Virus record (IMG/VR): IMGVR_UViG_3300030098_004191
Location: 1-64,000 of that record
Length of the DNA: 64,000 nucleotides
Source: a virus
Strand: one strand, 5' to 3'
Positions 3,474 to 59,500 of the stretch are shown piece by piece. Position 1 is the stretch's first letter. Each line of letters starts with the position of its first letter. The notes below the pieces were generated by a model, which was not told where the DNA came from, did not search any database, and was given only the letters and a program-made list of their open reading frames with translations. The position numbers and the translations under genes were made by a program.

Positions 3474-3475
3474 GA

Positions 3476-3703
3476 CTAGAAACTACCTCCGTTAATGTCT
3501 AAATTTTGAGTTGCTCCTGGAGTTAATTCTAATGTTGCATCCCACTTTCCAGTTGTTCCATTATATACAAGAACCATGCCATTCGTAGCTCCAGCCGCAT
3601 TAACATCAGATAAACCACCTAATGTCATTGATTGACTTCCTGCAATAGAAGAAACAACCTTTACAGCATTTTGCTGACCGACTCTAACTTTAATATCTGG
3701 CAT
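3476..3703 (-). CDS. Small structural protein
   Basis: LSDV..NGMVLVYN..TGKW fibre-type motif; ends INGGSF like the neighbouring protein. Confidence 0.7.
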   Translation of the reverse strand: MPDIKVRVGQQNAVKVVSSIAGSQSMTLGGLSDVNAAGATNGMVLVYNGTTGKWDATLELTPGATQNLDINGGSF

Positions 3704-4081: not shown

Positions 4082-4285
4082 CTAACATCCTTTATCCCTA
4101 ACAATCTCTTTTAACAATCCTTTAATCTCAGCAATGTCTGATTTTATCTCTTCAATTTCATCCCTTTCGGTTCTTTTTTTAGATTTAGTCTTTATGTATT
4201 GAGAATATCCAATAGAATCTGTGCTAATAATAGCTCCAGATTCTTCATCTCTATATAAATTTTTATGATCTTTTACAGGGATCAT
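4082..4285 (-). CDS. Conserved T4-like hypothetical protein
   Basis: IPVKDHKNLYRDEESGAII motif plus C-terminal coiled coil; ATGA overlap with the upstream gene. Confidence 0.75.
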   Translation of the reverse strand: MIPVKDHKNLYRDEESGAIISTDSIGYSQYIKTKSKKRTERDEIEEIKSDIAEIKGLLKEIVRDKGC

Positions 4286-19000: not shown

Positions 19001-22000
19001 TAACACATAATTTGCTAATTTTTTACTCTTAAATTCTACAAATTTAGATCTAGTTCCTAAAATATCAACATCTTTCGTCATATCGAAAGAATGTATAGTA
19101 TCAACTCTATTTTCAACAATAAAATCACTAACTATTGTTGTTGCATTAGTATTTGCAGTAGAACCAACTCCTACTGAAGATGAAATACCAACATCAGCAA
19201 AATTCTTAAGACCACTTGTATGAAGAAGCCTATTTACTGGGTTTACTAATTCTTCATATGTTATTGGACTTTTAACTGTATATGATAAATTTTGATAATA
19301 ATTATTATCAGGTACTACTTGGAAATCTTCATTTAATTTACCAACATCATTACTCCATCCATAATCTTTTCTTAAAGAATAATCAACGTCAAATCTAGCA
19401 ACATTCTTAACTATTTCATTAACTGTTGCGACAGATCCACTAAGAGCACCTAATATCCTTTCACCAACTTCTAATTCATAGGATCCTTTAATTTTAATTG
19501 TATTAGTAATACTTTCTGTTACTTTTAAATCAACTCTTGTATATTGACTATTTGTAAGAACTAAGAGATCTTCACCAAGAAGGAATTTAGTTGGTACTTG
19601 GGATGATTTAAATCTAGGATAAGAATTATAATTAACAATAGATCCAAATCCATTTTGTGCTGTTTGAGCAAGTCCGACAATAGATGTACTAATACCAGTT
19701 GCTATTCCCGTCATGTTCCATTCTACCTTATCAGCAGCACCAGAACTATCATATCCACTTACAGTAAAGAATTTATACCCATAATCTTCAGAATTAAATC
19801 CACTTCCTTGAACATAGGACTGCAAACCTTCAACAAATATCTTATCTCCCGTATTAAAAGGTTGAATACCAAAACCAGTAATAGGTGTAACTAATGTACA
19901 AGTTGTAAGACCTGTAGTACCATCATAGTCTAAAGATTTAACAGAAACACCATTAGTATTATTAATAGCAACTATTCTCTGTTCTATAGGAGTCAATCCT
20001 TTAGGTTCTTCAATAATATCAACAGAATTGAGTGTAACTCCGTTCATTACTGCTTCTAATATTCCAGTAGAAGCTTGTTTTCCTGTAGTTGGATCTACAA
20101 TAATTAAATCAGGTTCATTAGTATATCCAGTTCCACCAAAAGTAACATCAATTGCCTTAATAGTGTATGAATTTATTAAAGAAACTTTAGGAGGAACAAA
20201 TGCTTCTGGTCTAAGAGTTTTATCTGAAGAATATTCAAAACCTGGATCAATAATCCTAACATTACCAATTCTATTAATATTCTTAGATACTGGTAAAATC
20301 TCTGCGTTTATTCCTTGTGTAGATCCAATACTTACAAAGTGTGGTAATTGATTATATCCAAATCCACCAAAATTCAACTTAAGACTATCAACACCACCAA
20401 TATCTGTTGGTGAAGTCGTTGTATACTTTAAATTCTCAGTATCTGTTTGTGTGTATGAAAGTACTTCTGGTACTTCTGGCAATGAGACACTAAACGTAGT
20501 TGATCCAACTCCGAATATTGAATATTTTCCAGTATAAGTACTATCAACATAATTAATTTCAGAATTATTAGTTACTTCAGTATCTGCAGTACTAATAAAC
20601 CCAGATTTCTCTAATGTATAATATACACGAGATGGGTTAGTGGAAGAATAATTGAAATTAGATGACGTTCCAACTCCAACTACACTAAAACTATCTGTAC
20701 TTCCTGTAGAAACAAATTCATTATTAAAATCTGCATCATGAAAGAACTTTACATTATATCCATTAAGAGAACTATCTGATGTATCAAATGTTAAATCATT
20801 ATTATTAATTACTGGTATTGGTGGATTAATTAAAGCCAATTCTTGAGAAGATCCACCAGTACTACTAAAGTTTATTACTGTTGGTGGGAAATTAGATACA
20901 TCATAATGAGTTTCTGCTAATTGAATATTGTCATCATCTACTCTATAAACAAAATATGCAGTATCTTTTGATAAATTTCCTATAGCAGTATTTGCACTAT
21001 AAAAAACTTTATCTCCTGTTTTAAATCCATGTGCAGCAAGTGTAATTTGATTAGTTGTTGAACTAACATTAGATGCAGCAAATAATACTGGATTTACTAA
21101 TAAAGTCTCATTCTTATACTTTAATTTAACAGATATTGAAGTACCAATTCCAACAGATTGATCAGAATTTGCAGTGATATGTACAATATCACCATAAGAC
21201 ATACTATGTGGAGTAGTAAGAGTTACTTTTGCATCAATCTTCTGTACTTTTGCTGTTACTTGAGTATAATCAGATTTTATAGAATATTCAAACTCATTAG
21301 AACCTTTAGTATGGAAAAATAGACCGTCTGTAGATGTTGTTAATCCAACTTCAGTAGTAACTCCAATATAATCTTTAGATTTTTTAATAACATAAAGAAT
21401 CTGATCTGAACCAGACATTGGAATACCAAATGCAGTAGCACCAGTATTTGATACTTGTAAAGCCGAAGTACCTTTTGTAAGTATTACTTTTTGATTAGTT
21501 TTAAATGGATGATTTGGTAAGTATATGGATTGTGTAGGTGTAGATGCAGTAAATTGCACTTCACCAATAGTATATGGACTTGTAGATCCAATACCAGCTA
21601 TTGTACCAACACCAAGTGCTTGTGAAGGATTGAAATAAACAATATCATCTACTTTAGATTCAAAATATGGAGATTCTACTGGTAATGTGAAATAACTTGG
21701 GATTAAATCAACTAAAGTTGAAGCTGTGTGTGCAGAACCTACAACGCCCCTCTTGACCCTTATTACCTTATTATCATCAAATGTATTAAGTACTAGTAAC
21801 TTCTCTGTTCCAATGCCTATACTACTACCTACAGAGACATTATCTGGTATATGAGATACATATATGTCAGTTATAATTCCTGCAGTTGCATTTGCAACAA
21901 TATCTTTTGTTATTACAGTTCTATCTGTAACTATACCAATTGAATGGGTGTCAGTTAATGATTTTATAAAAGTTGATACTCCAGAAATCGTTAAATTATC

Positions 22001-25000
22001 AGTTTCATTAAATGCATGAGATGTTGAAATATATCCAGATATTTGATTAGGACTATCCCATACCATTACTACATCTTGATAAGTATCAATATTTGTTTGA
22101 ATATTAAGAATTGATTTACCAGTTATAGTACTAACAGTAGCATTTAATCCACCACCAATTCCACTATTAGTAGTAAATTTAGCAACTTCACCAACTTTAT
22201 ATCCAGTTCCACCTTCAACAATATCAAATGAATCTACAGATCCTTTCTTAACAGATTCTACTAAAGAGATTTGTTCTATTGCTTCATTAGATTCAATTAG
22301 ATAATCATTATCTGCATATTTGTCTGATACTTTATATGGAAGGGTGTTTCTTATTAAAGATGATGATCCAAAATCAAAATTATTCTGATTTATTAAGAAA
22401 TTATCACTAACTGGTTCAGATCTATAAGTATCTCCTATGAAATAAGGAAATTCTGGCAAAGTACTAATACTATTAATACCTGCAACATATACATAAGCAC
22501 CCTGTGGATATTCAGGAGTTTTAGTGAAAATACCATTATTTTCATCCAAATCACCAGAATTATCAAAAGTATAATCTTCTACAAAGAATCCAGGATTAAA
22601 TCCAATTGGCCTATCACTAACAATTCCACTAGTATTAGTATAACCACTTCTTAAAATTCTTATCGGTGAGTTTCTATCAGATGGATCTGTATGTCCATAT
22701 GGACCATAAATTGGATTACCGTCATATGCCCATCCAATAATTGGTGAATGATCTGCTCCAGTATCACCAAATTCTACAGAACCAATAGAAGTTGAATATC
22801 CAATATATGAATATCCAATTCCCTTATCCGAATCTAATAAACCAGATATATTTCCATCAAAGTTATTAATAGTTAATTTCCTAACATGAGAATCTAAAAT
22901 AGCATTAGATCCTGCTGCAATAACTTTTATAGATGTATTATTTTGAGTGTAATTAATACCAGGATTAATTATAGTAACATCAGTAATCTTACCATTAGTA
23001 ATATCTGCTCTTAATTTAGCACCAATACCATCACCAACAACTTCTAATGTAGGAGCAGAACTATATTCTCTTCCACCAAATTGTATATCAATTGCAGTTA
23101 TAGACCCACTAGTTGTCCCAATACCTATTGCATTATTAGTAATAATTGGTTTTAATGAGGCATCTTTTCCATTTTTAATTGTTATTATTGGTTTTCTTTC
23201 AAGATTTAATACAGTACTACCATATCCAGTTCCACCATCATAAACATAAGTATCAATAATAGATCCACGAACAACAGGAACAGCCGTTATTATACCAACT
23301 TCACCAGAATACTCAATATCTAAATTAAGTTCTACAGGTGGATATTCAAAATTTTGTAATCCAACCCCATTAGATCCAAATTTAATATAATTTTTTCTTA
23401 CATAATTTGATGTTATTGTTCCAGCAATTCCAGCATCAGCAAGTTGGAAAGCATGATCATCAACCTTAATAACCTGATATTGATTACTTGTTGTTGTAAT
23501 TCCAGTTTTTGCTGTTAATCCAGAAATTACCGTACCAGCAGTAGAATATAATATCTTATCACCATCATTAAATCCATGATTTTCAAAATTAACTGTTGAT
23601 GTAACTGTAGAAATACCTGTTTCACCAACAATTAATTTTCTATTTGTGTATCCTTTACCTGGATTGATTACTTTAAGTGCATATAATGTATCTTTACTTT
23701 CATATATTCTAAATTTTTGAGTACCAGTATTTGTAAATGATGTAAATCCAACAGTATTAATACCTGCATTATAGTCAGATTGAGTTGGATATAATTTAAT
23801 TGTAGAAGAATTAACTATTTTTGGCCAATATTTGTTTCCTGATTGTAAAAATTTATTCTGATTTGCATTATTACTTACTTCACCAATACTAAGAGCACTA
23901 TTTCCATTACTATTATAAATCAATACTTGTCCATTAGATAAGTTATGCTGACCTATAAAGGTTATTGTATCATCTGTAAGATCAACACCACCACCTCGAT
24001 TACTCAAACGAGCATCAAAAAATACATCTCTGAATCTTTTAGTTAATACTGGTTCTAATACAGCACCATCACCATTACCACCCGAAATATTAGCAGATAA
24101 TACACGTTCAATATCATAATCTTGAGGATCTATTAGAATATCTTCAACACTACCACTAATTACTGGTTGAATTTTAGCCGTATTTCCTATACCACCTGTA
24201 CTGATTGTATCTGCAGCAGATACAACAATATCTGGAAGATTAATTACATCATACCCAGTTCCACCATTTAAAACATCTATATGTGTTATTGGACCATAAA
24301 ATATATTATCATCAGTTTTATAATTGGCAATTTGAACGCCATTAACTAGCATTCCTGTTGCCCCAGATTCAGTTTTAGTGGATTTTCCAGACTTAATATT
24401 AGTTTCTATTGGAAATTTCTTTAATAATCCTTGAGCACTAATTTTTCTATTTTGTTGTTTATTAAGTGTAAATGTATGATTACCAGTAGATGATAATAAT
24501 TGTATATTTTTTTCTGTACCATCAGCATCTGGTATTATAAAAGATCTAGATGGATATATCTTAATTTGGTTAGGTTGTGATAATATTTTAACATAATAGG
24601 TTCCTTCTTCCAATCCATCTATAGGATCTGAATCTGGAGAATAATATACAGCGTCTCCTGTAATAAATGGAACAGGTGCAGGGAAAGATAAAATATTATA
24701 TCTTAATGTAGTAGTATCTTGATCTTGTAAATATCCAGCCACAACCATATCAGTTGAGGTTGGTATAGTTGTCGATGCAAGAGATACATTTATATCATAT
24801 GATGGTAATGAATTGGATGCTACGTAAATATTTTTATCATCATCATTATATACATTAGTAATATCTGATGTAAGAATATTTTGACCATAATCAATTTCTA
24901 TACCAGAACTTGTTGCCTTATTAATTTGTCTTCTAACATCATATTCACTGTTTACTGTCTCTGGTAAAGGAGATATTCCTGGAAGAAGTGTAAAATTATC

Positions 25001-26515
25001 AATTCTTATAGTTTTATTGGTTGGAACATTACCAATTTTACCTGTTGCAACAACATTTTGCTCCCCACGACGCACAATATCAACATTATCACCTACTTTT
25101 AAGCTGGATTTATCTATTTCAGAGTATAAAGTGTATATTGAACCAGACCATTCCTTAATTTGATATCTTGAAGCAGTGTTATAAATCCATGAATTAGCAA
25201 GAATTTGCTTTTTAGTTGCATTTATTTCTGGATTTAATATACTCTCACCAAGGTTTTTAACAACAATTTCCTCACCTTCATTTGTTAATTTAATATCAGA
25301 AACAGGAACAAATTTTGATATAACTCCCGTTATACGTACCTCAGTTTTTTTAGTCAGATCTCCGTTCTCATATCCAAAATATACTTCATCAGCCCTCAAA
25401 TCTGAAGTTGTAGTAATTGCAGATCCTACATTAGTACATCCTAAGAATTGATTAATTGTCTTATCTGTGTAAGAAATTGCAGTATTAAGACCAGATATAA
25501 CAGTTCCTGTTACCCCAAATCCTATTGTAGAGTCTACAGTAATAACAGATGACCCTATAGAAACTGGTCCAATAACCTTTGTCTTACCTGGAATGGTAAA
25601 TGTACCTTGAATTAGATCTTGATCGTTATATCCAACAAATAAACCTATCTTATAATAAGATTTTGCACCTCTAGTAACAATTTCAACTTCTGATACTGAT
25701 GCTTGTGTACCAGAATCAGTGGATTTTCTAAGTGTTTGACCAACTAGATTATTAGGGTTGCCTGAAATTTGCTCTGCAAGTACGAGTTCTCGTCTAATAA
25801 ACTGAGCAGATGATGGTTTAATTAAAAATTGCTCCAAATCAACGATTTTTGGATCAATTCCGTATAAAACATTAAATAAAATCCTAAAAGATTCCTCAGT
25901 TCCTTTAGATTGGTATAAGGATCTAGCTTCTTTTATGAAATTTCCAGCATCAAGGCCAGTAACAAATGGAGTATCTTCTAACCCTGGAGTTAATTGTGCC
26001 TTGATTTTCTTATAAAATTCTTTTAAGAATAATGCACTTAAATTATGAACAACTGAATTCTGAGCATGTGCAGCAGAATCAGAGTTTGTGAACACCAATT
26101 CTCCTGGATTATTTGGTGCATGATATGTGGTAATTCCACTAAATCCACGTTGACAACCAGTAAAGGTATTGGTTGTTATACCAGTATATGTAAAAATTTC
26201 ACTGTCTACCTTAAATAGACCATATTCACTAGGAAATCCTTTTGTACTTTCAACATTTATTGTAGTATCTGCAGTACCAATACCTACGGAAAGAGTAGTT
26301 CCAGAATTAACTATTTTATCGGTAAAATTATCTAATTTTAAATATTCATTTAAATTATCAGTAAGATCAACAGTACCACCTTGAAATTCCTGAGAAATAT
26401 AATATTGTTTTAAAAAATCAACAGCCTTAGGACTTTCAGATAATACAAACTCAGGAAGCTGATTATCAATAATCTGCTGTATTTTTACCTTCTTATCAAA
26501 CCCAGTTGTGATCAT
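13019..26515 (-). CDS. gp7: Giant baseplate wedge initiator gp7-like protein (4498 aa) with YHYH-type domain and repeats
   Basis: Between gp6 and gp8; QLPEFV..FLKQYY, YQSKGTEESFRILF, DNNYYQNLSYTVKS..LLHTSG motifs; HSPIIGWAYDGNPIYGPYG. Confidence 0.88.
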   Translation of the reverse strand: MITTGFDKKVKIQQIIDNQLPEFVLSESPKAVDFLKQYYISQEFQGGTVDLTDNLNEYLKLDNFTDKIVNSGTTLSVGIGTADTTINVESTKGFPSEYGLFKVDSEIFTYTGITTNTFTGCQRGFSGITTYHAPNNPGELVFTNSDSAAHAQNSVVHNLSALFLKEFYKKIKAQLTPGLEDTPFVTGLDAGNFIKEARSLYQSKGTEESFRILFNVLYGIDPKIVDLEQFLIKPSSAQFIRRELVLAEQISGNPNNLVGQTLRKSTDSGTQASVSEVEIVTRGAKSYYKIGLFVGYNDQDLIQGTFTIPGKTKVIGPVSIGSSVITVDSTIGFGVTGTVISGLNTAISYTDKTINQFLGCTNVGSAITTTSDLRADEVYFGYENGDLTKKTEVRITGVISKFVPVSDIKLTNEGEEIVVKNLGESILNPEINATKKQILANSWIYNTASRYQIKEWSGSIYTLYSEIDKSSLKVGDNVDIVRRGEQNVVATGKIGNVPTNKTIRIDNFTLLPGISPLPETVNSEYDVRRQINKATSSGIEIDYGQNILTSDITNVYNDDDKNIYVASNSLPSYDINVSLASTTIPTSTDMVVAGYLQDQDTTTLRYNILSFPAPVPFITGDAVYYSPDSDPIDGLEEGTYYVKILSQPNQIKIYPSRSFIIPDADGTEKNIQLLSSTGNHTFTLNKQQNRKISAQGLLKKFPIETNIKSGKSTKTESGATGMLVNGVQIANYKTDDNIFYGPITHIDVLNGGTGYDVINLPDIVVSAADTISTGGIGNTAKIQPVISGSVEDILIDPQDYDIERVLSANISGGNGDGAVLEPVLTKRFRDVFFDARLSNRGGGVDLTDDTITFIGQHNLSNGQVLIYNSNGNSALSIGEVSNNANQNKFLQSGNKYWPKIVNSSTIKLYPTQSDYNAGINTVGFTSFTNTGTQKFRIYESKDTLYALKVINPGKGYTNRKLIVGETGISTVTSTVNFENHGFNDGDKILYSTAGTVISGLTAKTGITTTSNQYQVIKVDDHAFQLADAGIAGTITSNYVRKNYIKFGSNGVGLQNFEYPPVELNLDIEYSGEVGIITAVPVVRGSIIDTYVYDGGTGYGSTVLNLERKPIITIKNGKDASLKPIITNNAIGIGTTSGSITAIDIQFGGREYSSAPTLEVVGDGIGAKLRADITNGKITDVTIINPGINYTQNNTSIKVIAAGSNAILDSHVRKLTINNFDGNISGLLDSDKGIGYSYIGYSTSIGSVEFGDTGADHSPIIGWAYDGNPIYGPYGHTDPSDRNSPIRILRSGYTNTSGIVSDRPIGFNPGFFVEDYTFDNSGDLDENNGIFTKTPEYPQGAYVYVAGINSISTLPEFPYFIGDTYRSEPVSDNFLINQNNFDFGSSSLIRNTLPYKVSDKYADNDYLIESNEAIEQISLVESVKKGSVDSFDIVEGGTGYKVGEVAKFTTNSGIGGGLNATVSTITGKSILNIQTNIDTYQDVVMVWDSPNQISGYISTSHAFNETDNLTISGVSTFIKSLTDTHSIGIVTDRTVITKDIVANATAGIITDIYVSHIPDNVSVGSSIGIGTEKLLVLNTFDDNKVIRVKRGVVGSAHTASTLVDLIPSYFTLPVESPYFESKVDDIVYFNPSQALGVGTIAGIGSTSPYTIGEVQFTASTPTQSIYLPNHPFKTNQKVILTKGTSALQVSNTGATAFGIPMSGSDQILYVIKKSKDYIGVTTEVGLTTSTDGLFFHTKGSNEFEYSIKSDYTQVTAKVQKIDAKVTLTTPHSMSYGDIVHITANSDQSVGIGTSISVKLKYKNETLLVNPVLFAASNVSSTTNQITLAAHGFKTGDKVFYSANTAIGNLSKDTAYFVYRVDDDNIQLAETHYDVSNFPPTVINFSSTGGSSQELALINPPIPVINNNDLTFDTSDSSLNGYNVKFFHDADFNNEFVSTGSTDSFSVVGVGTSSNFNYSSTNPSRVYYTLEKSGFISTADTEVTNNSEINYVDSTYTGKYSIFGVGSTTFSVSLPEVPEVLSYTQTDTENLKYTTTSPTDIGGVDSLKLNFGGFGYNQLPHFVSIGSTQGINAEILPVSKNINRIGNVRIIDPGFEYSSDKTLRPEAFVPPKVSLINSYTIKAIDVTFGGTGYTNEPDLIIVDPTTGKQASTGILEAVMNGVTLNSVDIIEEPKGLTPIEQRIVAINNTNGVSVKSLDYDGTTGLTTCTLVTPITGFGIQPFNTGDKIFVEGLQSYVQGSGFNSEDYGYKFFTVSGYDSSGAADKVEWNMTGIATGISTSIVGLAQTAQNGFGSIVNYNSYPRFKSSQVPTKFLLGEDLLVLTNSQYTRVDLKVTESITNTIKIKGSYELEVGERILGALSGSVATVNEIVKNVARFDVDYSLRKDYGWSNDVGKLNEDFQVVPDNNYYQNLSYTVKSPITYEELVNPVNRLLHTSGLKNFADVGISSSVGVGSTANTNATTIVSDFIVENRVDTIHSFDMTKDVDILGTRSKFVEFKSKKLANYVLCKTNRVLTIDDISPLFSEAGTQYPYVDFSIEEGYSRFLVQVINPSTNDIESTEFITFGDSENTFVLEKGSVTNSSEKLGILSTINNVDNRTIRFTPTDIYNDDLDLKVVKNSFNNDLPGIGTQSIGYVDLTGVNATVGIGSTAELISRATTAVESYFASIEVINKSTNEKNLVEVVVTHDGTNSYIAEYYTDTSEYIGYASPSIGIITSKLASNVLSLQYENPTSGSELLVRSKIVGFGVTSAGIGTYRFKQSGQSDGSERSLRYDAEYHNIAAANPSTNYSINTGISSDVCSTVKNIVRVSSGNTSAVHQFLTVHNKDTVHTTSYPILSIGSTGGLGHFTSDYASGKIKLYFKPDSEVNGQPLEIQRFSEVVYTLNDDLNTAPELTYGTVREGLSLFRFNAFNGDRINKKDFPLKHNRVPIFEKIFNPADTNVLDPVTGIFTINDHFFATGEELVYTPNSTFIGIAGTHLQHASQTNLPTEVYAIRLTKDTFKLALTESNANSGTGVTFPSVGGGNAHELEMSKRSEKTLMSIDNVVQAPLAFTPVTTNLTNNGASISTSRTIFEVTGIATITSEDVIKIDNEYMQVTSVGLGTTALGPITNTGSANLIEVERGFVGTAPATHNHNATVRLYNGDFNIVGSTVYFASSPKGSSNTKKDNSNLDIVRSNFGGMVYLRNNYSKNVIFDDISEAFTGIGQTYRVSVGGGNTVGIETGSTLTLINGIFQKPSTDNNPDNNYSFIENSGISSITFTGVSSAVSGAQVISTSDVNQNNLPRGGVVVSVGSTGGLGIAPLVGAAVTVQINGSGGISTVGIATTGALNSFNWSYGSGYNTSTIAIGITDPAYAHTFISAAPGAVTGTGGPFTPTNATYVSETGVLTLTIPSHGRSSGNVQLVENSLTFTCSKDGHLTRHDYPRSTDPAGGNANLAITVVDANTISVNVGKAGGHTGTAAQITANIGAGGTITGFVINNAGSGYTKPKPIVPQPAYESLPVEGVFRRGLGNTTLTGIGLSVTLGMGPSIGIGSDNKFADAADLIEKNKLFIGDLAARRMKDKFTSYNYPSGFTEQDCIDDVVDVLEAVAYNLRYGGNDKTYDAANLFVNGVYSTPAPVTGEEQQVIYAFREAVDMANRAIRNVDVSAQVGAQYNHTFVSAPIAGGISIRNDGGVAIGATTPTTATYDAETGDLVLTVPNNIYPVHAPSTHTPSTAQYFHTTGNLKLTLNGHGFHTGDLVKIVPNSLTFTCARDNHATEHTYPRRSDPKYDTWVSIASTTVNTFTIDVGLPAANNQYAHTFKSSSTGSIQKASNLVRITTNSLRFTCDRDNNATNHDYPRTTDPIHNTNIAIAATAGNTFTVNVGVSDTALTTRTQVFDDTITYDPGNCANVQSAITTLVGIVTDVVLTHNAAQLPSTRTVSSLSLSDVKTFRITNPGYSFEVGDVIRPVGVVTDRSLTHIRDDFELEILEIFNDSYASWNVGEFDYIDTIKNLQNGRRTRFPLFYNGELLSFEIDELDPQSSLIDPKSLLMIYVNGILQIPGEAFTFEGGTSFVFTEAPDADDNIAIFFYKGTDIDGGNANDVEQVTDVVPTLKMGDSVQIFKHNGISTTVNQDVRTVYDIQSSDTIETNLYSKQGVDDVNYKPLSWIKQKTDRTINGDLVSKSRDSIEGQVYPTARIIGDLKPTDDFVWIDQNARSLFLYENTTLKNGGSAAGISVDSAGGIIVDGSNPVAAGLTAIVATNGTISSLDITSGGSGYSGSVTVKIANPFSVGMTTTFVPDGTNTVSGIGSTATATLSLTNGVVTGSSIVNPGFGYSQAHPPQVIAQAPTFSSEIVTKISTFNGATGIITGISTSVGIGTTLAVRFFVGGAYALTDNQPIYICDTTIGTGVTSIYTNDDDVVSTGTTFLNNIYLVSEFDTNAGVITCNVHSDSPVVGLSTQGTRPVGKFSWGKLSGFTRTGVPPIGLGVTGFTNGQSGLSTYPTIQRRGFGLRNNGPLRKSL

Positions 26516-35043: not shown

Positions 35044-35826
35044 TTACATTACCAACTTACGTCTTTCTATGTCATTCTCATTTAACAGTGCTGATTCACC
35101 CCTCCAAATCTCTATAATATGGGCAGGATTATCACTCTCATTTATACCTTTGTGCCATGTATTTACAGGGATGAATATACCTTTATGTTCCTTTAGTTTG
35201 TGCTTAATTATATTTGGCTGATTAATACCATTATCCATTATTACATAACATTCTCCTTTTACCACATTCCATGTTTCAGTCCTGTGTTCATGTTTTTGCA
35301 TTGATAGAGAACTATGAGGATTAATCACTAATTCTTTTACCTTATAACCTTCTCCTTCATACAGTACTCTATAGTATCCCCATGTTCTTATTGTCTTTGG
35401 ATTACTATACTCATTCAATAGAATACTACTACTATTCTTCTTATCATTTCCTCCTATTCCCCACTTGAATACTACTCTTGCATCACACCAGTACTTATCA
35501 TGTTCTGGTACATTATCCTTTTCTCTATCTCCACCATTACAGAATATAATAGGACTGTGTTGTATTAACTGTTCTATTGCATCATTACTACTGTCATCAT
35601 CATCATTAAAGGAAATTACTTCATCGACACATGACAATGATAGAAGGATTTCTTTCCTTTCATCATAGTCCATGAAGTATCTTCCCTTCTTACGGATTAA
35701 CCATTCATCGGAATTTAATCCTACTACTAAGTGTGTACCATATGCTCTGGCATGTTTAAACAGTGCAATGTGACCACTGTGTATTGGATCAAATCCACCT
35801 GTGACTAATACTTTACTCATTTCCAC
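35044..35826 (-). CDS. Cytidylyltransferase (HIGH-family) fused to a mannose-6-phosphate isomerase-type cupin
   Basis: TGGFDPIHSGH, VGLNSD, NGGDR; C-terminal RTWGYYRVL..LSMQKHEHRTETW. Confidence 0.85.
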   Translation of the reverse strand: MEMSKVLVTGGFDPIHSGHIALFKHARAYGTHLVVGLNSDEWLIRKKGRYFMDYDERKEILLSLSCVDEVISFNDDDDSSNDAIEQLIQHSPIIFCNGGDREKDNVPEHDKYWCDARVVFKWGIGGNDKKNSSSILLNEYSNPKTIRTWGYYRVLYEGEGYKVKELVINPHSSLSMQKHEHRTETWNVVKGECYVIMDNGINQPNIIKHKLKEHKGIFIPVNTWHKGINESDNPAHIIEIWRGESALLNENDIERRKLVM

Positions 35827-38852: not shown

Positions 38853-39019
38853 TAAACTTCCTCCACTAAATTGATTTCATAGTCCTGAACTCTTTCATAG
38901 ATTACCTCATACTTGTTTACATCTGCATTAACAAGATCTCTTGCTTGATCTTCATCTTCTGCCTCAACTTCTACAATAAATGTAGTAGTTTCCATGCACT
39001 CAACTTGAAATGTTTTCAT
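38852..39019 (-). CDS. Small hypothetical protein (55 aa)
   Basis: MKTFQVECMETTTFIVEVEAEDEDQA...; common phage VEAE-EA motif. Confidence 0.65.
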   Translation of the reverse strand: MKTFQVECMETTTFIVEVEAEDEDQARDLVNADVNKYEVIYERVQDYEINLVEEV

Positions 39020-39199
39020 TTACTTAACCTCCATCCATTTGATAGGGTTCCCCTGAGTCAGTTTCCAGATGAAAACTGATCCTACTTCTTCACTCCAGTT
39101 CTTAGCATAGTGTTTTGCACTTCCAAACTCATAGAAACCGATAGAAGTTGCCTTCTCCCAGTTATATGTACTTGTTAATGCCCAGTTGAATGATTCCAT
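39020..39199 (-). CDS. Small hypothetical protein (59 aa)
   Basis: MESFNWALTS...AKNWSEE..VFIWKL..GNPIKWMEVK. Confidence 0.6.
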   Translation of the reverse strand: MESFNWALTSTYNWEKATSIGFYEFGSAKHYAKNWSEEVGSVFIWKLTQGNPIKWMEVK

Positions 39200-39204
39200 T
39201 GTGA

Positions 39205-39318
39205 TTAAAATGCAAGTTTGGTTATTGCTAAGTCAATTATATTTACACCCCAGTGCATGAACCAAAAGAATGAAAGGAGAAAAATTAATTTCTCCTTTGC
39301 TGTCATGTTTTTTGCCAT
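39205..39318 (-). CDS. Small membrane peptide (37 aa)
   Basis: MAKNMTAKEKLIFLLSFFWFMHWGVNIIDLAITKLAF. Confidence 0.5.
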   Translation of the reverse strand: MAKNMTAKEKLIFLLSFFWFMHWGVNIIDLAITKLAF

Positions 39319-39319
39319 A

Positions 39320-39817
39320 TTACCTCATGTATAAGTATCCACCTGCCCATCCGCAGTTTTGTGGATTAAGTACATACTCACGCTCTTTAATCACTCTCAT
39401 ATCATATCTTACATACTTTGCTGGAGACTTCCATGATGCTGCCTTGTAAATCTCTCCTGTTTTCTTATCAACAAAAGCATGAACACTTCCATCACGATAC
39501 TCATTTCTATCTTGGAATGTATCATAATCCTGTTGGATGATCTTATAATACTTCTTACCATTCTGTATTCTAAATCTCATCAACTTAGCAGTTCCATTAT
39601 CCATTGCATCTAACTGATCCTGAGCATACTTGGATAGTTCTTTCTTACTATCATCACCATTGAAGTATGCACTGTTTCTTTCAATCATTCTTCTGTGATA
39701 CAACTTGTAGTTCTCTGCAAGTGATTCACATAATTGCTCTGTCCACTCCAACACTCTTGTTTCAAGAGTTTTTGTCTCATACTCAGCACTTGTAAGTGTT
39801 GTTGTTTGAAATGCCAT
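39320..39817 (-). CDS. Conserved cyanophage early hypothetical protein
   Basis: GKKYYKI..SVHAFVDKKTGEIYKAASWKSPAK..WAGGYLY. Confidence 0.8.
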   Translation of the reverse strand: MAFQTTTLTSAEYETKTLETRVLEWTEQLCESLAENYKLYHRRMIERNSAYFNGDDSKKELSKYAQDQLDAMDNGTAKLMRFRIQNGKKYYKIIQQDYDTFQDRNEYRDGSVHAFVDKKTGEIYKAASWKSPAKYVRYDMRVIKEREYVLNPQNCGWAGGYLYMR

Positions 39818-39900
39818 AAATGCTCCCTTGATTGTTTACTCTTATATTATAGCAGTAAAAAACCCTCTGTGAAGAGGGCTTGTACCACTTATTCAAGTGT

Positions 39901-40014
39901 CTATAGATCGGTTCCTCCTGTCTCTACTACCTCTACAATGTCCTCAAGAACTGCTAGGATCTCATTTCCATTGTTAGTAGTGTCCAAAAGGAATTCTGCG
40001 AAATTAGGTGACAT
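39901..40014 (-). CDS. Small acidic peptide (37 aa)
   Basis: MSPNFAEFLLDTTNNGNEILAVLEDIVEVVETGGTDL; stop abuts the next element. Confidence 0.5.
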   Translation of the reverse strand: MSPNFAEFLLDTTNNGNEILAVLEDIVEVVETGGTDL

Positions 40015-40037
40015 GACTAAATTAGTGTCGGGTTTAC

Positions 40038-40250
40038 AAAAAAAGTATTGAGAGAGTGGGGCATCGACATAGGTTTCACCTATATGCCCAAATTTACCCT
40101 ATAGGAATCGCTTACACCTGAACCCCTACTAACACAACTCCTAACCAAAAATGGATGTATGTTGGTTTACAAGGACTTACAACAATAAGAGCGAATCGTT
40201 GATGTACGCCTTGTGCTTTTGGGTATAGGAACCACTTATCTCTCAACTTC
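40038..40250 (-). ncRNA. Putative ~210-nt multi-stem structured RNA
   Basis: No credible ORF; 13-bp closing helix, several internal hairpins, possible loop-loop pairing, promoter element upstream and U-tract downstream. Confidence 0.7.
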
Positions 40251-40299
40251 TATAGTATAGCAGTTTTACGTCATGCTTCAAGGACGGATGTTACAGTTC

Positions 40300-40734
40300 T
40301 TAAGCTGGCACACCAGATGGAATTTCCTTCGGAACTACGTTAGTCTGAAGAACCTCTGTGAAATCCTCATTATACTTCTGATCTATGGCAAAACATTCCC
40401 ACTGATGATCTAATGTAAAGATGTAAACAAATTCTGCATCATTAGCAGGATTCTCTACATAATCATCAAAGTTTAGATCCAAACGTGGTTCAGTATTGTC
40501 TCCTCTGTCATTATAATATTGAACATGAGGTTCTACCTCATTTCTATCCCAATCTGTATCAGAATCACAGCATGAAATGTCTCCACCATCAAGTAACTCT
40601 GCAACCTTCTCTCTTGTGTTAAACTTTGCATTTAAAGTAACACCTAGCCATTGAGGATAACCATCCCAATGATGATACACAGATAGAATAGCACCATCCG
40701 CAAGTTGTAATCCAATCCTTGATCTTGTTGCCAT
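40300..40734 (-). CDS. Conserved phage hypothetical protein
   Basis: MATRSRIG..SVYHHWDGYP..L..GGDIS..Y..RG..EFVYIF. Confidence 0.8.
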   Translation of the reverse strand: MATRSRIGLQLADGAILSVYHHWDGYPQWLGVTLNAKFNTREKVAELLDGGDISCCDSDTDWDRNEVEPHVQYYNDRGDNTEPRLDLNFDDYVENPANDAEFVYIFTLDHQWECFAIDQKYNEDFTEVLQTNVVPKEIPSGVPA

Positions 40735-41062
40735 TTAAAAAAAGGGGGTTAAAAAACACGTGGGATGTTAGTTCTTTCTTCGGTTGCGAACCGAGAGGCA
40801 CATCCATCTCCTCGTTTTTGTGTGTGGGACTTACAACTTCAAAACTGTCTTTTCAGATGTCTAGGACATCAGCAGTACAAGAGGTCTCCAAACATAAAGA
40901 GCAGTTTTCCACAGAATGAATCAAAGATCATCTGATTGTTGCTCACCCCTGCCTTGCGTTTGCCCAATGGTGAGAGAAACAAAAAACGGAGACAGTGCAT
41001 TACTCTTTCGGTCATGTGTCTGCTTCTGAGTCAGACTAGAAAGAAACCGTCTTTGTTTCCCA
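40735..41062 (-). ncRNA. Putative ~320-nt three-domain structured RNA (or tandem RNAs)
   Basis: No credible ORF; 15-bp, 13-bp and several shorter helices; 8-nt long-range complementarity; promoter element upstream, U-tracts downstream. Confidence 0.7.
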
Positions 41063-41070
41063 TGTGCTTA

Positions 41071-42057
41071 TTATAGTGCATCAAGCAATGGATTCCACTC
41101 AACCTGTGACTCTTTCTCAAGTGGCACAAGCCCCACTAGCGATTTGTTGAATAATGCTCTACCATCATCATTCAGATCAAATAGTATGTAGTTTCTACCA
41201 TTCAGTATGGCAGATCTACCTACTGTTCCACTACCAGCACAAGGATCTAATACTGTTGATCCTTCATTACTAAACATGTTCACAATCCTATTCAACAGTG
41301 ATATAGGTTTCTGTGTAGCATAATCTAACTTCTCTATACCTTGAATCTGTTTAATATCAGTCCATACATCCTTAACAGGAATACCATCCATTTCATCAAA
41401 ATACTTCTTGACTCTTGGAATACCTGTCTTTGGTGAATATTCAAGTCTATTATCTTCATCTAACATTATCATTCTTTCTTTTGATATATGCCATTGAAGA
41501 TTATTACCCTTCCATGTATATCTTAAGTTAGGTCTTGATACTACATTAGGTTGTCTATTAACTAATGCACTCGTTTGATATTTCTTATTACGATATGGAC
41601 AAGTCTTAGCTTTCTTAATAGTTTCAGGATCATATTCTTTATGTTCAGGATTGTAAATTGATTCTTTACCTTTCTGATAAACAATTATACTATCATGGTG
41701 ACGTTGTAATTGTTTCTTAGACTTGTGATTCCCACCTGAAACCCATACTATCTCGTTCTTAAATCTATTCTCACCAAATATATCATCTAGTACAATTCTA
41801 ATGTGGTGAGATACTTTTGGTTCAACATGTACTACGATATTACCAACATCACTCAACACTCTATAACATTCTAGTAGTAATGGTCTTATCAATAATTCCC
41901 TATAATCACTACTAGATTTAAACTTGTCATCAAAGTGATAAAAGTCTCTTCCAGTACAATAGGGTGGATCAACATAAATGAGATCCACCGAATTAGAATC
42001 TACTTGCTTAAGTAGTTCTCTACTGTCACCTATTCTATACTCGTTTAGCATTTTCAA
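41071..42057 (-). CDS. DNA methyltransferase, N6-A/N4-C beta class
   Basis: DLIYVDPPY, FKNEIVW, YATQKP, VLDPCAGSGT. Confidence 0.92.
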   Translation of the reverse strand: MKMLNEYRIGDSRELLKQVDSNSVDLIYVDPPYCTGRDFYHFDDKFKSSSDYRELLIRPLLLECYRVLSDVGNIVVHVEPKVSHHIRIVLDDIFGENRFKNEIVWVSGGNHKSKKQLQRHHDSIIVYQKGKESIYNPEHKEYDPETIKKAKTCPYRNKKYQTSALVNRQPNVVSRPNLRYTWKGNNLQWHISKERMIMLDEDNRLEYSPKTGIPRVKKYFDEMDGIPVKDVWTDIKQIQGIEKLDYATQKPISLLNRIVNMFSNEGSTVLDPCAGSGTVGRSAILNGRNYILFDLNDDGRALFNKSLVGLVPLEKESQVEWNPLLDAL

Positions 42058-44342: not shown

Positions 44343-44499
44343 TTCTCTTCTGAGTAGTTACATCATACTCTATCACAATCTTTTTAGATTGTCTACCTGT
44401 ACTATCGTAGGTTGTAAAACTTTGCAGTGTACCACCTAACTCATTTACTCCCATGTGAGTAAATGCTGCTAGTATTTCCTTTTCATTTCTTTTGGTCAT
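44332..44499 (-). CDS. Small hypothetical protein (55 aa)
   Basis: MTKRNEKEILAAFTHMGVNELGGTLQSFTTYDSTGRQSKKIVIEYDV...; ATGA overlap with the ho1 stop. Confidence 0.6.
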   Translation of the reverse strand: MTKRNEKEILAAFTHMGVNELGGTLQSFTTYDSTGRQSKKIVIEYDVTTQKRNVN

Positions 44500-45173
44500 G
44501 TTAATTTACCTTTAATGAATCCTATGATAATCTGGATGAATGACTTTAAAGAATTACCTTCTAATTGATCGAACATGTGCATGTTTAATCTAAATGCCCA
44601 GTTTGCCTCAACAATTATTGCATTTTGTTGTGCTTCTGTCAATGGTAGTTCATCAAGTATGCTACGATACTTAGTCTTGTACTCCTTGGCATTATCTATC
44701 TTATCAAACTCATAGAAGTATAATCCTTCACCATTTAAGTTCATTGCCTTTTCAGCAATATTCTTAAGTATCTGTCCACCTGATAGATCACCCAAGTATC
44801 TGGTATAATGATGACCAACTAATAGTTCGGGTTCAGTTTTTGCAACCTCATGTATTCTATCAACATATCTCTGACATGCTTCAGTTGGTTGAATCAATGA
44901 CCTCCACATTGGACCATAATAATATCTCAAATCCCGTTCAAGGCTATTAACTCTCTCTAACTCTGGTAGATATAATTTACCAATAACAGGATCATTCTTA
45001 AATATCCTGAAGTCTTCCTCTATTGCAGTATAAACAAAGTATAGGTCAGCAACCAATACTTTATAACTGTCCTTACTAACAACACCACGTAAGAATGATT
45101 TTACAAATGCTGTATTCTCTGCTGCTGAATGTGATTTTTTAGTTCCTTCTTTAATCTCTTTTGAAAATGTCAT
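44496..45173 (-). CDS. ho1: Heme oxygenase (auxiliary metabolic gene)
   Basis: EGTKKSHSAAENT, LVGHHYTRYLGDLSGGQIL, EANWAFRLN; start 45173 is ATGA-coupled to the upstream gene. Confidence 0.95.
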   Translation of the reverse strand: MTFSKEIKEGTKKSHSAAENTAFVKSFLRGVVSKDSYKVLVADLYFVYTAIEEDFRIFKNDPVIGKLYLPELERVNSLERDLRYYYGPMWRSLIQPTEACQRYVDRIHEVAKTEPELLVGHHYTRYLGDLSGGQILKNIAEKAMNLNGEGLYFYEFDKIDNAKEYKTKYRSILDELPLTEAQQNAIIVEANWAFRLNMHMFDQLEGNSLKSFIQIIIGFIKGKLT

Positions 45174-45562
45174 TTCTTTTTCCTGACTGGTACTTCTAGT
45201 GTCCATGATGATGATTCCAATTTAACCATATCAAAGTTCTTTTTAAACTCTTTCTCTCTTGCCTTCCTCTCTTTCTCCATTGTTAGTTCAATGGTTTCAA
45301 TACTTCTCTCACCATAATGAGATTTCTGTGGATGTTGCAAACCCATGTAATCATAGATCGCAGTATCTACCATAAAGTAAAGTGTATCCCAAGTCAAAGT
45401 ATCTCTCAAGTTAGATGCAATTCTATCTACATCATTTTCATCAAGATACTCACCAGTTGCTACTGCCTTTGAGTAATCTTCATATTGAGTCAAGAGTTTT
45501 GCTCTAATCTCTACCAACTTATTAAGGTTGATAGTAATTTTCACATCATCGTCTATAGCCAT
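45170..45562 (-). CDS. Conserved cyanophage hypothetical protein
   Basis: MAIDDDVKITINLNKLVE; perfect promoter upstream. Confidence 0.7.
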   Translation of the reverse strand: MAIDDDVKITINLNKLVEIRAKLLTQYEDYSKAVATGEYLDENDVDRIASNLRDTLTWDTLYFMVDTAIYDYMGLQHPQKSHYGERSIETIELTMEKERKAREKEFKKNFDMVKLESSSWTLEVPVRKKK

Positions 45563-56524: not shown

Positions 56525-59500
56525 AGGATAGTGCATCGACCTTTGCAGACAATTCCTTAATTGCTTCAATTAGCAATGGAACAAGTCTCTTATAGTCAAC
56601 GGCTTTAAGTTCATTACCTAGACTAGGATCATAACCTTCTGCTTCACTCAAATCTCTTGTTTGAGTAACACCAGGTAATCCAAGTTTTTCAACTTCTTGT
56701 GCAATAACACCAGTATCAGTTTGGCCACGCAAATGTTCATAGTTTTTATCATTCCAAGTAAATGTATTACCTGAAATTGATTTAACCTTATCAAGAGCAT
56801 TAGGAATAACTGTGATATTATCTTTTAATCTTTCATCAGAACTGGAGAAAGCAGTAATGTCACCACCAACGTATAGATCATTATTAATACCAACACCACC
56901 AGATACTACAAGAGAACCTGTAGTCTTACTGCTAGAGTTTGTTGTTGCTTTTGCTCTCAACTGTCCATTAGATTCAAGTATATCATCAACTGTTGTAGTT
57001 CCACCAGCAGAATCAATCGTTAAATTACCAGTAGAAGTATCAAGTTCATTGGCTCCAGTAAGACCAACTTGGATATTACCAAATGTAGCACCATTACCAC
57101 CACCAATTTGATTGAATGTGGCAATACCAGCAACATTCAAATCTCCACCAATGTTGACATTCTTAGCAACACCGAGTCCACCTTTAAGTACAAGGCAACC
57201 TTCATTAATATTATTGGACTGCTCAGTACCAGCAATCTTCAAGGTACTATTCATAACAGTAGTACCATTCAACCTAACTTCTGAGTTGAATGTAACAGGT
57301 CCATCAAACTGAGATAGAATCTTATCAGATGTACCACCCTCAACAATTAATCTGTCTTTAATTACAACTTCATCAAAAATAACACTAAGTTTTGATGGGT
57401 CTTGTCCAGTGACAGTAGGAAGAGGAGCATCATATGTTTGTTCTGTACCTGTTGCAGAACTTACTCTCTTATTACCAATAAAGAAATCACCTCTGTTATT
57501 CATACCAGTATAGACAACAGCACCACAAGATCTTTCTTGTGCTTGAACTAAGAACTCTTCTCTTTCAGATAGAGTTGTAGTCTGAATCTGTGGTAAACCA
57601 GTTGAATAGTTTCCTGGTCCATAACCAAGGTATTCAAATGTATGACCAGAAGCACGAATAATAGATGGTCGTCTAAATTCAACTGCTAATGGATCAATCT
57701 TCTTAATCTTTGTTTTATCAACATGATTAGTTCTAGTAGTTCCTAAGTAACCACGAATTACTGTAAGTTCATTATTACCAGAACCACTAAGATTATTACT
57801 AACTACCCTTACTATTTCATTGTCAATCTGTAATAAAGATCCAAGTGAGAACTTAGATCTTAAATTAATCTTATCAGCAGCAGTAGGAATATCATTAATA
57901 ACAATCTTATTACCACTTCCTAATGCTGCACCAAGATCATATGTAGAACCTTGATAGAAAGAGAATCCTCTTGCACCTACACTCTCATTACCTGCATCAG
58001 AAATTGCATCAGCAGCAGACATTCCATGAGGTATATAACGAGCAGGAGTTATATTTGTATCAGTTTTAACAGAGAAATTAGAGGCACTTACTTTCTCTTT
58101 TACATAAAAATCTCCAAGACTAACATTTGAAGAGTTAAGTAATCTTACTTTACTACCAGATACTAATCCATGAGCTGCGACACCACCACTACCCCAAAAT
58201 GTAGATATTCCAGTTGTTGCATCAAACTGAGTAACACCTATTGATCCTGCAGGTCCAGTATTGGCAGCATATTGGCCAACAATAATAACAGGATCAGCAG
58301 CAGCATGAGCAATAGCAACTTTATTCTTAGCAGGAACGTCTGTAATTCTATATTGTCCACTAGCAGTAGTACCAATACCAGTAATTTCTAGACCATCACC
58401 AACATTAGATATAATTTGTTCACCTGAAATAGTATATCTTGCAGCACCATTACCACCACCAACTTTAGTTTGATCAAAATATAATGGAGTTGTAACACTA
58501 GCATTATAACCAGAACCTGGGTCAATAATTTCTACATTAGAAATACCACCACCAGCTACAACTACTCTTGCAGTTGAACCATTCCATGCGTTTGTTGCTG
58601 GATTTGCTCCACCACTTAATAACTTAACATCCTGATATGTTCCATTATCATAATTTGCACCAGCAGTAACTGTTCCAGTAGCAATACCATTAAAGTTATG
58701 ATTCTCAGTAAATGTAATAGTACTAATACCAGCAGTATTATCTCTACCAACTGCACTAATCTTCTTACCTACAGCAAAATCAGTTAAGAATTGATCTACA
58801 CATTCTCTAGTAATACTCTTCTTAAGGTCATTAGTTACAACTTCACCAAGAGGATCTCTTTTTGCATAAGAAACTGCTGCATTTGGGTTGTCGTCTGGAT
58901 TATCCTTATCTTGTTGTGGATAAAGATCAGTAACATTCTGACCATACTTAAGTTCAGTAAATTCTTCACTAACACCTTGATCTGCTTTTAATACAAATAG
59001 ATGATATACACCATCCTGAACATTATATTCATATTCACTTATAACTTCAGTTCTATAAACATAGTAATTGGATTGAATATCATTCCTTTCAAATCTTGGT
59101 AATGCAAGATCTCTAGTAGTTACATCACTGGTAAATGTTCCAGGATCATGTGTAACTCCTACTATATCAGTTGTTGAATAAGTAAATGTCTTATTATCAG
59201 CAGTTGTAGTAACTTTAAATGTACTGTTATATCCACTATTACCAGCACCAATAGTATTATTTGTACTCTTTACATTTACTATTTTAACTAAATCATTAGC
59301 CTTTAAATTATGTGGTAATGCAGTTCGTACAGTAACTACATTAGAAGATTCTGTACATGTACTAATAAACCTATGATTTCTCTTATAGGCATAATCAGTT
59401 GCATCAATAGTATTATCTGTAAAGTCAGTAGTTGCTTTAGCACCAGTAAAGCTTGAATCCTGAATTACAAAACCTTCATTTGGATTTCTTGCATTGAATG

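Follow-up and report, generated by a model that had tools for sequence, protein, structure and literature searches.

M1, an uncatalogued structured RNA family of P-SSM2-like T4-type cyanophages

Does the segment between positions 40,038 and 40,250 of the virus record IMGVR_UViG_3300030098_004191 hold an RNA gene, and if so, of which kind? A preliminary description of the window (the whole 64,000-nt stretch analysed here, positions 1 to 64,000 of this IMG/VR record) had proposed a discrete structured RNA of about 210 nt at this place. Our analysis identified 40247-40047 as a copy of a structured RNA that is uncatalogued and forms a family in P-SSM2-like T4-type cyanophages; the family is called M1 here. 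All coordinates are those of the window, read on the minus strand, which carries the RNA as well as all the genes near it. The full record that holds the window is an 85.9-kb IMG/VR virus fragment. A blastn search of phage records with 39000-42000 returned only T4-like cyanomyoviruses, the best matches being the Prochlorococcus phages P-SSM2 and P-SSM5 (Kyanoviridae, Salacisavirus) and single-cell-associated contigs named 'Marine virus AG-345'. By these similarities the window comes from a P-SSM2-like cyanomyovirus of the T4 type and is a part of its genome.

A blastn search with a 231-nt stretch covering the RNA found P-SSM2, P-SSM5 and four AG-345 viruses, and only the 3′ ~90 nt and the first ~30 nt aligned. 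Reading of the P-SSM2, P-SSM5 and AG-345 loci revealed a common core of ~125 nt; the matches cover only the two ends because the middle of the window RNA is an insertion relative to this core. A 21-mer of the core, GGTTCAGGTGTAAGCGATTCC, was found exactly in at least 120 IMG/VR contigs and once in the window (40124-40104). An independent anchor, TAAATTTGG-N6-9-GGTGAAACC, yielded ~20 further copies, in which the 21-mer varies only at positions 2-5 or by one U/C change and AGGUG(U/C)AAGCGAUUCC is constant. M1 was thereby found in more than 140 IMG/VR contigs, in P-SSM2 and P-SSM5, and in four single-cell-associated viruses. The complete 252-kb genome of P-SSM2 has one copy, of the minimal 125-nt form, at 56698-56822, and the window copy is the sole one in the 85.9-kb record. 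The 21-mer has no exact occurrence in 185,579 prokaryote species genomes, and cellular origin or mimicry of M1 was rejected on this ground, which covers exact identity only.

The ~125-nt core of M1 is a three-way junction of P1, P2-P3 and P4, as obtained by RNAalifold and manual refinement on alignment A1, in which 32 distinct short-form copies were aligned with MAFFT without structural guidance. P1 closes both ends of the RNA and is made up of P1a (8-9 bp), a 3-nt bulge and P1b (3-4 bp). After P1 comes the junction G-UU and then P2 (6 bp), which runs on into P3 (3-4 G-C pairs). On the 3′ side a 19-nt asymmetric loop lies between P3 and P2, followed by the junction GUAAAUUU and by P4, a two-part hairpin with the loop region GGUGAAACC that adjoins the 3′ strand of P1.

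Covariation in A1 argues for this fold. Standard pairs occupy 97.7% of its 945 cells, and 18 of the 30 pairs have changes on both sides. None of 500 shuffles reached the observed percent paired, the number of pairs or of cells with changes on both sides, or the covariation score, and the count of further pair types was reached by 9 of the 500. When the partners were slid by 1-3 columns, pairing dropped from 97.7% to 29-59%. Pairing is complete (100%) in P2, where five of the six pairs are compensatory; compensatory changes were found in eight of the 11 counted pairs of P1 and in four pairs of P4, and P3 showed one such event in A1 and a second in locus L138. Frequent G-U pairs in P1 (11/32 at one pair, for example) exist on this strand only and would be C-A mismatches on the opposite one, so selection acts on the transcript of this strand. 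About 45 unpaired nucleotides are nearly invariant while all the helices drift. The single sequence folds only slightly more stably than its shuffles (z = -2.06), and the opposite strand no less so (z = -2.44); the minimum free energy and centroid folds of the single sequence reproduce some of the helices of the preliminary description. The evidence for the predicted M1 fold is comparative, not thermodynamic.

A cmsearch with R1, the covariance model built from A1, gave a single match in the window (40248-40043, 113 bits, E 3.6e-35, model positions 1-124 of 124), which confirmed the minus strand implied earlier. The same model, run over ~0.74 Mb of related contigs for extra or diverged copies, found only those already retrieved by the anchors. 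This full-model match and the 18 compensatory pairs in the homologue alignment bear out the earlier claim of a genuine conserved structured RNA. In the alignment to R1, the window copy can form all the P1, P2, P3 and P4 pairs in the family register, and it has all of the near-invariant unpaired segments, GGUUCAGGUGUAAGCGAUUCC, GUAAAUUU and GGUGAAACC.

The whole unit, from the P1 5′ strand to the P1 3′ strand, spans 40247-40047 and consists of the three-way-junction core with an insert of 89-97 nt in P3. The P1 5′ strand (40247-40233) has P1a GUUGAGAGA at 40247-40239, the bulge UAA, and P1b GUG at 40235-40233. It pairs with CAC-UCUCUCAAU at 40058-40047, namely 40247-40239 with 40055-40047 and 40235-40233 with 40058-40056, and this covarying helix of 12-13 bp is the one previously noticed between the two ends. 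The invariant G-UU follows at 40232-40230. The P2 5′ strand CCUAUA (40229-40224) and the P3 5′ strand CCC (40223-40221) make up 40229-40221, as assigned by covariation. The P3 3′ strand GGG and the near-invariant single-stranded GGUUCAGGUGUAAGCGAUUCC (40124-40104) occupy 40126-40104, and the latter segment, delimited by conservation of the 21-mer, holds GGUGUAA (40118-40112) and AGCGA (40112-40108). The P2 3′ strand UAUAGG (40103-40098) and the invariant junction GUAAAUUU (40097-40090) lie within 40103-40090. P4 (40089-40059) has the base GGGCA/UGCCC, the top AUAGG/CCUAU and the loop region GGUGAAACC at 40080-40072, which is invariant in 32 of 32 sequences fished by a different anchor. It corresponds to the hairpin GGGCAU-AUAGG-UGAAA-CCUAU-AUGCCC, which had been correctly recognized and which covaries.

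The other helices proposed before fared differently. UACCC/GGGUA is in the wrong register of P2 and P3 and cannot form in the relatives, where CCUAUA/UAUAGG (40229-40224/40103-40098) is conserved instead. The pairing UAGGGGUU/GAUUCCUA conflicts with P2 and P3, to which covariation assigns its residues. ACAAGG/CCUUGU and AACAUA/UGUGUU concern the insert, which explains why this copy departs in size from the family. Across ~140 copies the P2 5′ strand and the conserved core are 17-234 nt apart, and the content of the P3 loop ranges from a 10-nt loop to an insert of more than 230 nt. Alignment to R1 puts an 89-nt insertion of the window copy in this loop. The copy is long because two independent, conserved modules, M5 and M4, are nested there. 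A size of ~210 nt is a property of this copy and not of the RNA, whose family core has ~125 nt. At the base of P3, long-insert relatives keep GAA opposite AGUA (CCC-GAA...AGUA-GGG), a bulged-G (S-turn) consensus; the window copy has AAA opposite AGUA (40127-40130).

M5 (40215-40169) is closed by ACAAGG/CCUUGU (40214-40209/40174-40169), so that this earlier helix stands as a module stem. It contains a 38-mer (40210-40173) and an inner hairpin CAACGAU/AUUGUUG with the loop UCGCUCUU. Its closing stem covaries among 14 contexts, with AA/UU, GU/AC, UU/AA, CA/UG and GG/CC as variants. The 30-mer core of M5 was present in 24 IMG/VR contigs; often M5 stands by itself, starting 6 nt past a -10 element, and then has a long closing stem GGGAAACAAAAC/GUUUUUGUUUCUC. 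Its place differs among phages: on the 5′ or the 3′ side of M1, or within P3. M5 has no match in Rfam and makes up an RNA family by itself. The 38-nt core is 95-97% identical across three cyanophage genera (the Salacisavirus-like window phage, S-SSM7 and MED4-213). Besides the window copy, M5 was placed at 1488-1556 of locus L003 and at 1490-1552 of locus L004; where it stands alone, often right after an early promoter, the predicted RNA has ~65 nt.

M4 (40164-40135) has the stem CAAC/GUUG (40164-40161/40138-40135) around AUACAUCCAUUUUUGGUUAGGA; this stem covaries, with ACAC/GUGU, CAUC/GGUG and AUC/GAU in relatives, and displaces the AACAUA/UGUGUU helix of the preliminary description. It was present in 14 other M1 loci, always in or adjoining P3. 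In some phages M4 is fused to a ...GUGUAAGUCC tail upstream of M1.

Two pseudoknot pairings had also been suggested, UCGCU with AGCGA and UUCCUA with UAGGAG. These turned out to be matches of 5-6 nt between invariant segments and are not family features. Most M1 copies are without both M5 and M4, and M5 is as well conserved in S-SSM7 and MED4-213, two phages without M1 in their complete genomes; the M5 loop is therefore not conserved for pairing with M1. Because the matched segments are invariant, covariation gives no test of the loop-loop pairings themselves.

Three structured units adjoining in the window, 40752-40821, 40825-40966 and 40972-41061, recur in relatives. Their place relative to M1 varies, being upstream in some phages and downstream in others, and they are therefore RNA modules shuffled as units. 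Taken together, the sequences point to a repertoire of portable RNA domains in P-SSM2-like phages, with P3 of M1 as one of the places where they lodge. In the window the units of 40752-41061 stand upstream of the MATRSRIG gene.

Is M1 a known RNA? At gathering score the whole window gave no Rfam match. At E <= 10 the region 39700-41200 gave only chance-level tsr31 and SNORD96, both outside the RNA, and the minimal P-SSM2 form of M1 gave none. M1 did not reach the gathering threshold of manA (RF01745), wcaG (RF01761) or any other Rfam 15 family, and manA, which the preliminary description had asked to be excluded, was thereby ruled out. The RNAs reported in cyanophages are manA, wcaG, glnA, PhotoRC and abiF (PMC9964418, PMC2864571); since the scans of the window, the region and the minimal form match none of these five, M1 is not one of them. 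ARAGORN found no tRNA or tmRNA gene in the window, and the RNase P RNA model (RF00010) has no match in the whole 85.9-kb record. A protein-coding reading was also rejected: the only open reading frame (ORF) on the strand of the RNA is a 44-codon TTG frame, and insert lengths that are not multiples of three as well as the compensatory pairs argue against it. Our literature search found no paper describing the M1 RNA. It may stand, unnamed, among the more than 10,000 viral candidates for structured RNAs that a 2023 survey collected from IMG/VR (PMC10690425).

The preliminary description had assigned a promoter element to this RNA, and our promoter scan agreed. An early promoter cassette at 40298-40254 contains the AACTGTAACA box (40298-40289), a small hairpin, the -35 element TTGAAG (40281-40276), a 16-nt spacer and the extended -10 element TGc-TATACT (40262-40254), with a 9/12 match and TG. 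The hexamer TATACT itself lies at 40259-40254. This sigma-70-type promoter with its extended -10 should place the predicted transcription start, at about 40248-40246, on the first base of P1. In the window the -10 element ends at 40254 and P1 starts at 40247, and P1 begins 6-8 nt after the -10 element in most relatives too. In 89 of 123 distinct upstream contexts the G-UU junction is preceded by a -10-like hexamer that ends 18-30 nt away, with TG extension in 46 of these; the main peak is 21-23 nt before the junction, which equals 6-8 nt before P1. The cassette of AACTG(G/T)CACA box, hairpin and T-run, which had been noted before for this region, stands directly upstream of P1 in most of the 123 contexts. 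A second upstream class, ...GGGGGGACGCATAAAGTGTCC..., has a TAAAGT hexamer ~11 nt before a longer P1. This context represents either a different promoter type (with -10 TAAAGT) or a transcript-internal element. In loci such as L018, L083 and L093, ...GGGGGGACGCATAAAGTGTCC-TTAAGGT stands directly after a stop codon.

Where the transcript ends bears on the U-tract reported after the closing helix. The tract is present in the window as U7 at 40044-40038, but it is not a feature of the family: a T5+ run after P1 was found in only 19 of 101 distinct downstream contexts. In the window P1 is followed by UAC-U7, GUAAACCCGACAC, a 37-codon ORF and a hairpin with U6. A leader made of a Y-rich stretch or U-run and GUAAAC(N)GACAC precedes the small acidic gene whichever module lies upstream (M1, M2 or M8), and its U-run varies from 2 to 7. 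For this reason we assigned the U-tract to the leader of the next gene, conserved in relatives, which occupies 40046-40015 (U7, then GUAAACCCGACAC). In the window copy, P1 and U7 may terminate some transcripts. Read-through from M1 into the following 37-codon gene and a discrete transcript of ~210 nt are equally possible.

The 37-codon acidic ORF (40014-39901) is read from the sequence and is a homologue of PSSM2_071 (T4-GC 67), which is annotated in P-SSM2. It probably shares a transcript with M1. The hairpin CCCUCU...AGAGGG with U6 (39878-39857) is the likely terminator of this short M1 unit; it overlaps the -35 element of the next predicted promoter, TTCACA-16-TATAAT (39873-39846). Across the family M1 is followed by a gene at 15-35 nt, by other RNA modules, or, in one group, by a short hairpin and a further sigma-70 promoter. 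Where there is a start codon, it lies 15-35 nt past P1 and is not sequestered. Clustering of ORFs within +/-2.7 kb of 149 M1 copies revealed no constant neighbour gene, and the largest 'cluster', considered as a conserved protein partner, was discarded as a single-linkage artefact. A second family of acidic peptides, of ~41 codons (...VTVDYYLAEF), often follows M1 in other phages. Directly downstream of the M1 unit in the window is a gene for a DUF7717 protein (39817-39320).

What, then, might M1 do? The reading that we favour, and to which we give an even chance, is that M1 is a single-copy, early, promoter-proximal and stable structured RNA that binds one conserved macromolecule of the host or the phage, with P3 as a tolerated docking arm. 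The phage would make M1 early with the host RNA polymerase, as the 5′-terminal domain of a short transcript that perhaps runs on into the 37-codon gene. The folded domain would accumulate as a stable RNA and function as an independent RNA gene. A compact tertiary core, formed by the invariant loops and junctions, would bind the conserved partner, and P3 would be no more than a peripheral arm on which accessory modules dock. An RNA gene with a specific partner, not a generic signal, is suggested because M1 is single-copy in P-SSM2 and in the record, because ~45 unpaired nucleotides stay nearly invariant while the helices drift, because the downstream genes are unrelated and their start sites unsequestered, and because some copies have no gene following in the same unit.

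Several observations weigh against this reading. M1 is always in the orientation of the flanking genes, and homologues of the 37-codon ORF lie directly downstream in 33 of 149 loci, about a fifth; both facts fit a cis-acting leader. One contig, L022, has two M1 copies. ARAGORN found no tRNA gene within 2.6 kb of M1 in the 149 loci. Marine RNA libraries give weak support for the expression of M1. Part of 39300-41100 is contained in 13 runs on record as RNA, and contigs of four marine libraries from four studies were placed on the stretch. In library X1 the summed contig depth is 2100-3600 over 40032-40153 (the 3′ core of M1) against 20-500 over the flanking ORFs, and in library X5 it is 445-527 against 0-54. 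Across the libraries the core has 5-100 times the summed depth of the flanking ORFs, a ratio of assembled contigs summed over strains that share the core and not the flanks, with DNA carry-over possible. These contigs show no transcript starts, ends or strand, and uncovered bins carry no meaning. The depth fits, weakly, a stable and abundant RNA.

Among the other explanations, that M1 is an orphan riboswitch is the strongest, although we consider it rather improbable. M1 would then be an aptamer in a 5′ leader, and a metabolite or ion that stabilises P1 would set early-gene expression together with the U-run or the downstream modules. Its anatomy is that of a classical aptamer, in which the two ends form P1, several stems meet at a junction whose unpaired nucleotides are invariant, and a peripheral stem varies; it lies between the predicted transcription start and genes, with U7 after P1 in the window; and cyanophages already have the orphan leader motifs manA, wcaG and glnA (PMC2864571, PMC9964418). 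However, there is no recognisable expression platform and no coherent regulon, the downstream genes being unrelated. The U-run follows P1 in a minority of contexts and belongs to a leader in which its length is not fixed. Unsequestered start codons, the fresh promoter after some copies and the single copy per genome also speak against regulation of this kind. The single copy counts equally against a generic protector, in which M1 and the modules beside it would keep 5′-end-dependent RNases (RNase E/J) off early messages and of which one per early transcript would be expected, and against a processing unit that marks cleavage sites in a multi-module precursor; neither would need a specific partner, and we regard this pair as unlikely. 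P1 starting at the predicted +1 would give a base-paired 5′ end, but a simple hairpin would suffice for that, and yet the ~45 unpaired nucleotides are nearly invariant. The modules stand back to back with spacers of 3-5 nt and are shuffled among phages, which suits processing, but no cleavage has been observed. Least probable by far is an element acting at the level of DNA, a recombination or regulatory cassette with an incidental RNA fold. M1 does occur at cassette boundaries, where the surrounding modules and genes are shuffled between phages, but compensatory changes keep four helices across a variable insert of 10 to more than 230 nt, and the frequent G-U pairs, being C-A on the other strand, require selection on a single-stranded transcript. 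The model for such a cassette is the promoter-early stem-loops (PeSLs), reportedly described from T4-type phages, along with modular shuffling, by Arbiol et al. in 2010. PeSLs are plain hairpins and serve as promoter/terminator boundaries. M1 resembles them in its place right after an early promoter cassette (box, hairpin/T-run and -10) and in the reshuffling of the surrounding units; unlike them, it has several helices and invariant loops in 125 nt and comes after the promoter instead of forming part of it.

A more specific proposal, which we rate as a long shot, is that M1 is a tRNA-binding RNA. Two T-loop-type pentads, from GGUGUAAGCGA (40118-40108) and GGUGAAA (40080-40074), would interdigitate and stack against the elbow of a tRNA or pre-tRNA, from host or phage, so as to capture, sense or protect it early. 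The invariant unpaired segments hold AGCGA and two GGUGNRA heptamers (40118-40112 and 40080-40074). In stem I of the glycyl T-box, AGCGA is the AG-bulge motif and G-G-U-G-N-G-A are the conserved apical-loop positions (PMC11404447), and in T-boxes the AG bulge and apical loop together build the interdigitated double T-loop by which the elbow of tRNA is stacked upon (PMC11404447, PMC4810234). In addition, GGGUGAAA is among the conserved positions of the Rfam consensus for class A RNase P, as seen in an alignment of cyanobacterial rnpB; at least one AGVGA with at least two GGUGNRA occurred in only 0.1% of 20,000 dinucleotide shuffles of the minimal RNA; and the sole variant within UGUAA is at pentad position 3. 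Reviews have predicted interdigitated T-loop motifs in viral RNAs (PMC4810234, PMC4919913). Yet the motif match was noticed post hoc, and the topology of M1 is unlike all three known cases: its two segments lie in the P2/P3 internal loop and in a separate hairpin, not in a bulge and a loop of one stem. The change GUAA to GCAA fits a GNRA tetraloop equally well, and at UGAAA the closing G-C pairs follow at once, the two customary linker nucleotides being absent. No NCCA-binding element or catalytic domain was seen in M1, and the lack of a tRNA gene nearby counts here as well. The Rfam T-box (RF00230) and RNase P models do not match, no specifier loop or antiterminator bulge was seen by eye, and with the RNase P RNA consensus M1 shares only the GGUGAAA heptamer. 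If true, this reading would add a fourth, viral use of a motif known from T-boxes, RNase P and the L1 stalk of ribosomal 23S RNA; synthesis of M1 in the opening minutes of infection would then serve to capture, sense or shield host or phage tRNAs, and further RNA modules could naturally be plugged into its P3 arm. Two related ideas were dropped: Shine-Dalgarno-like AGGUG motifs as a 16S sponge, since the GG of the P4 copy is paired, and a split tRNA T-arm (GGUUC...GAUUCC), since the G and C runs on its flanks belong, by covariation, to P3 and P2.

Returning to M1 as an RNA gene with one conserved partner, we compared it with small phage RNAs of similar description. RNAs C and D of phage T4 (species 1 and 2) are small stable non-coding RNAs of the tRNA region, made from a multi-unit precursor, and their function is not known. 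They are embedded among tRNA genes and processed with them, whereas M1 has no tRNA gene within 2.6 kb; the likeness is one of description and not of sequence comparison. Close parallels are manA (RF01745) and wcaG (RF01761), which like M1 are orphan, strongly conserved structured RNAs of ~100-200 nt in early or hyperplastic regions of marine T4-like cyanophages (Weinberg et al. 2010, PMC2864571; PMC9964418). They are also in gene orientation, have heterogeneous downstream genes and no known function. M1 differs from both in that no match in sequence or structure was found, and in being built as one three-way junction with an arm that takes plug-in modules.

T4-like cyanophages account for much of the mortality among the ocean's main primary producers, and their early host-takeover region is mostly unannotated. 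Abundant in marine viromes, present in marine RNA libraries, with a well-defined fold and in no catalogue, M1 marks an unexplained step of early infection, and it is open to testing in culture with P-SSM2 on Prochlorococcus NATL1A/NATL2A. New in this work are the recognition of the long copy as a core with two nested modules, the helix-by-helix check of the earlier fold and its pseudoknots, the attribution of the U-tract to the leader of the following gene, and the T-loop lead. The nested layout is unusual, with independent modules inside one arm that elsewhere lie upstream, inside or downstream of M1. Portable RNA domains recombined by phages bear on the evolution of non-coding RNA, and suggest a natural scaffold for displaying RNA modules.

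Further modules were seen in the same phages. A unit of ~55 nt directly 3′ of M1 (L010, L089, L044 and other loci) has two interleaved covarying stems, CAACCC/GGGUUG and GGUAGUUUC/GGAAACUACC, in a pseudoknot-like arrangement, and is often followed by a U-run and then by a small acidic-peptide gene. In P-SSM2 (L001, 1590-1668), M1 is followed by a module closed by GUGGUAUG/CAUACCAC, with conserved UUAGUACCUG...CAGGUGAAGCACCUCUUGA and a variable central insert; this module also occurs in locus L002 (~1905-2035). The motif UGUAAGUCC ends several modules, at 40827-40835, 40173-40181 and 11405-11413 of the window (all on the minus strand) and at ~1440-1460 of L001; its three copies in the window compare with 0.5 expected. 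In relatives the frame GGCAUC-[variable hairpins]-UGUAAGUCC is met repeatedly and may be a second scaffold into which hairpins are plugged.

Among the other genes of the window, all on the minus strand, a host-like heme oxygenase is encoded at 44496-45206 (Pfam E 8e-79), and a fusion of a cytidylyltransferase with a mannose-6-phosphate isomerase/cupin at 35044-35826. Two very long ORFs, of 4498 codons (13019-26515) and 2384 codons (4282-11436), presumably encode structural or fibre proteins of a large cyanomyovirus.

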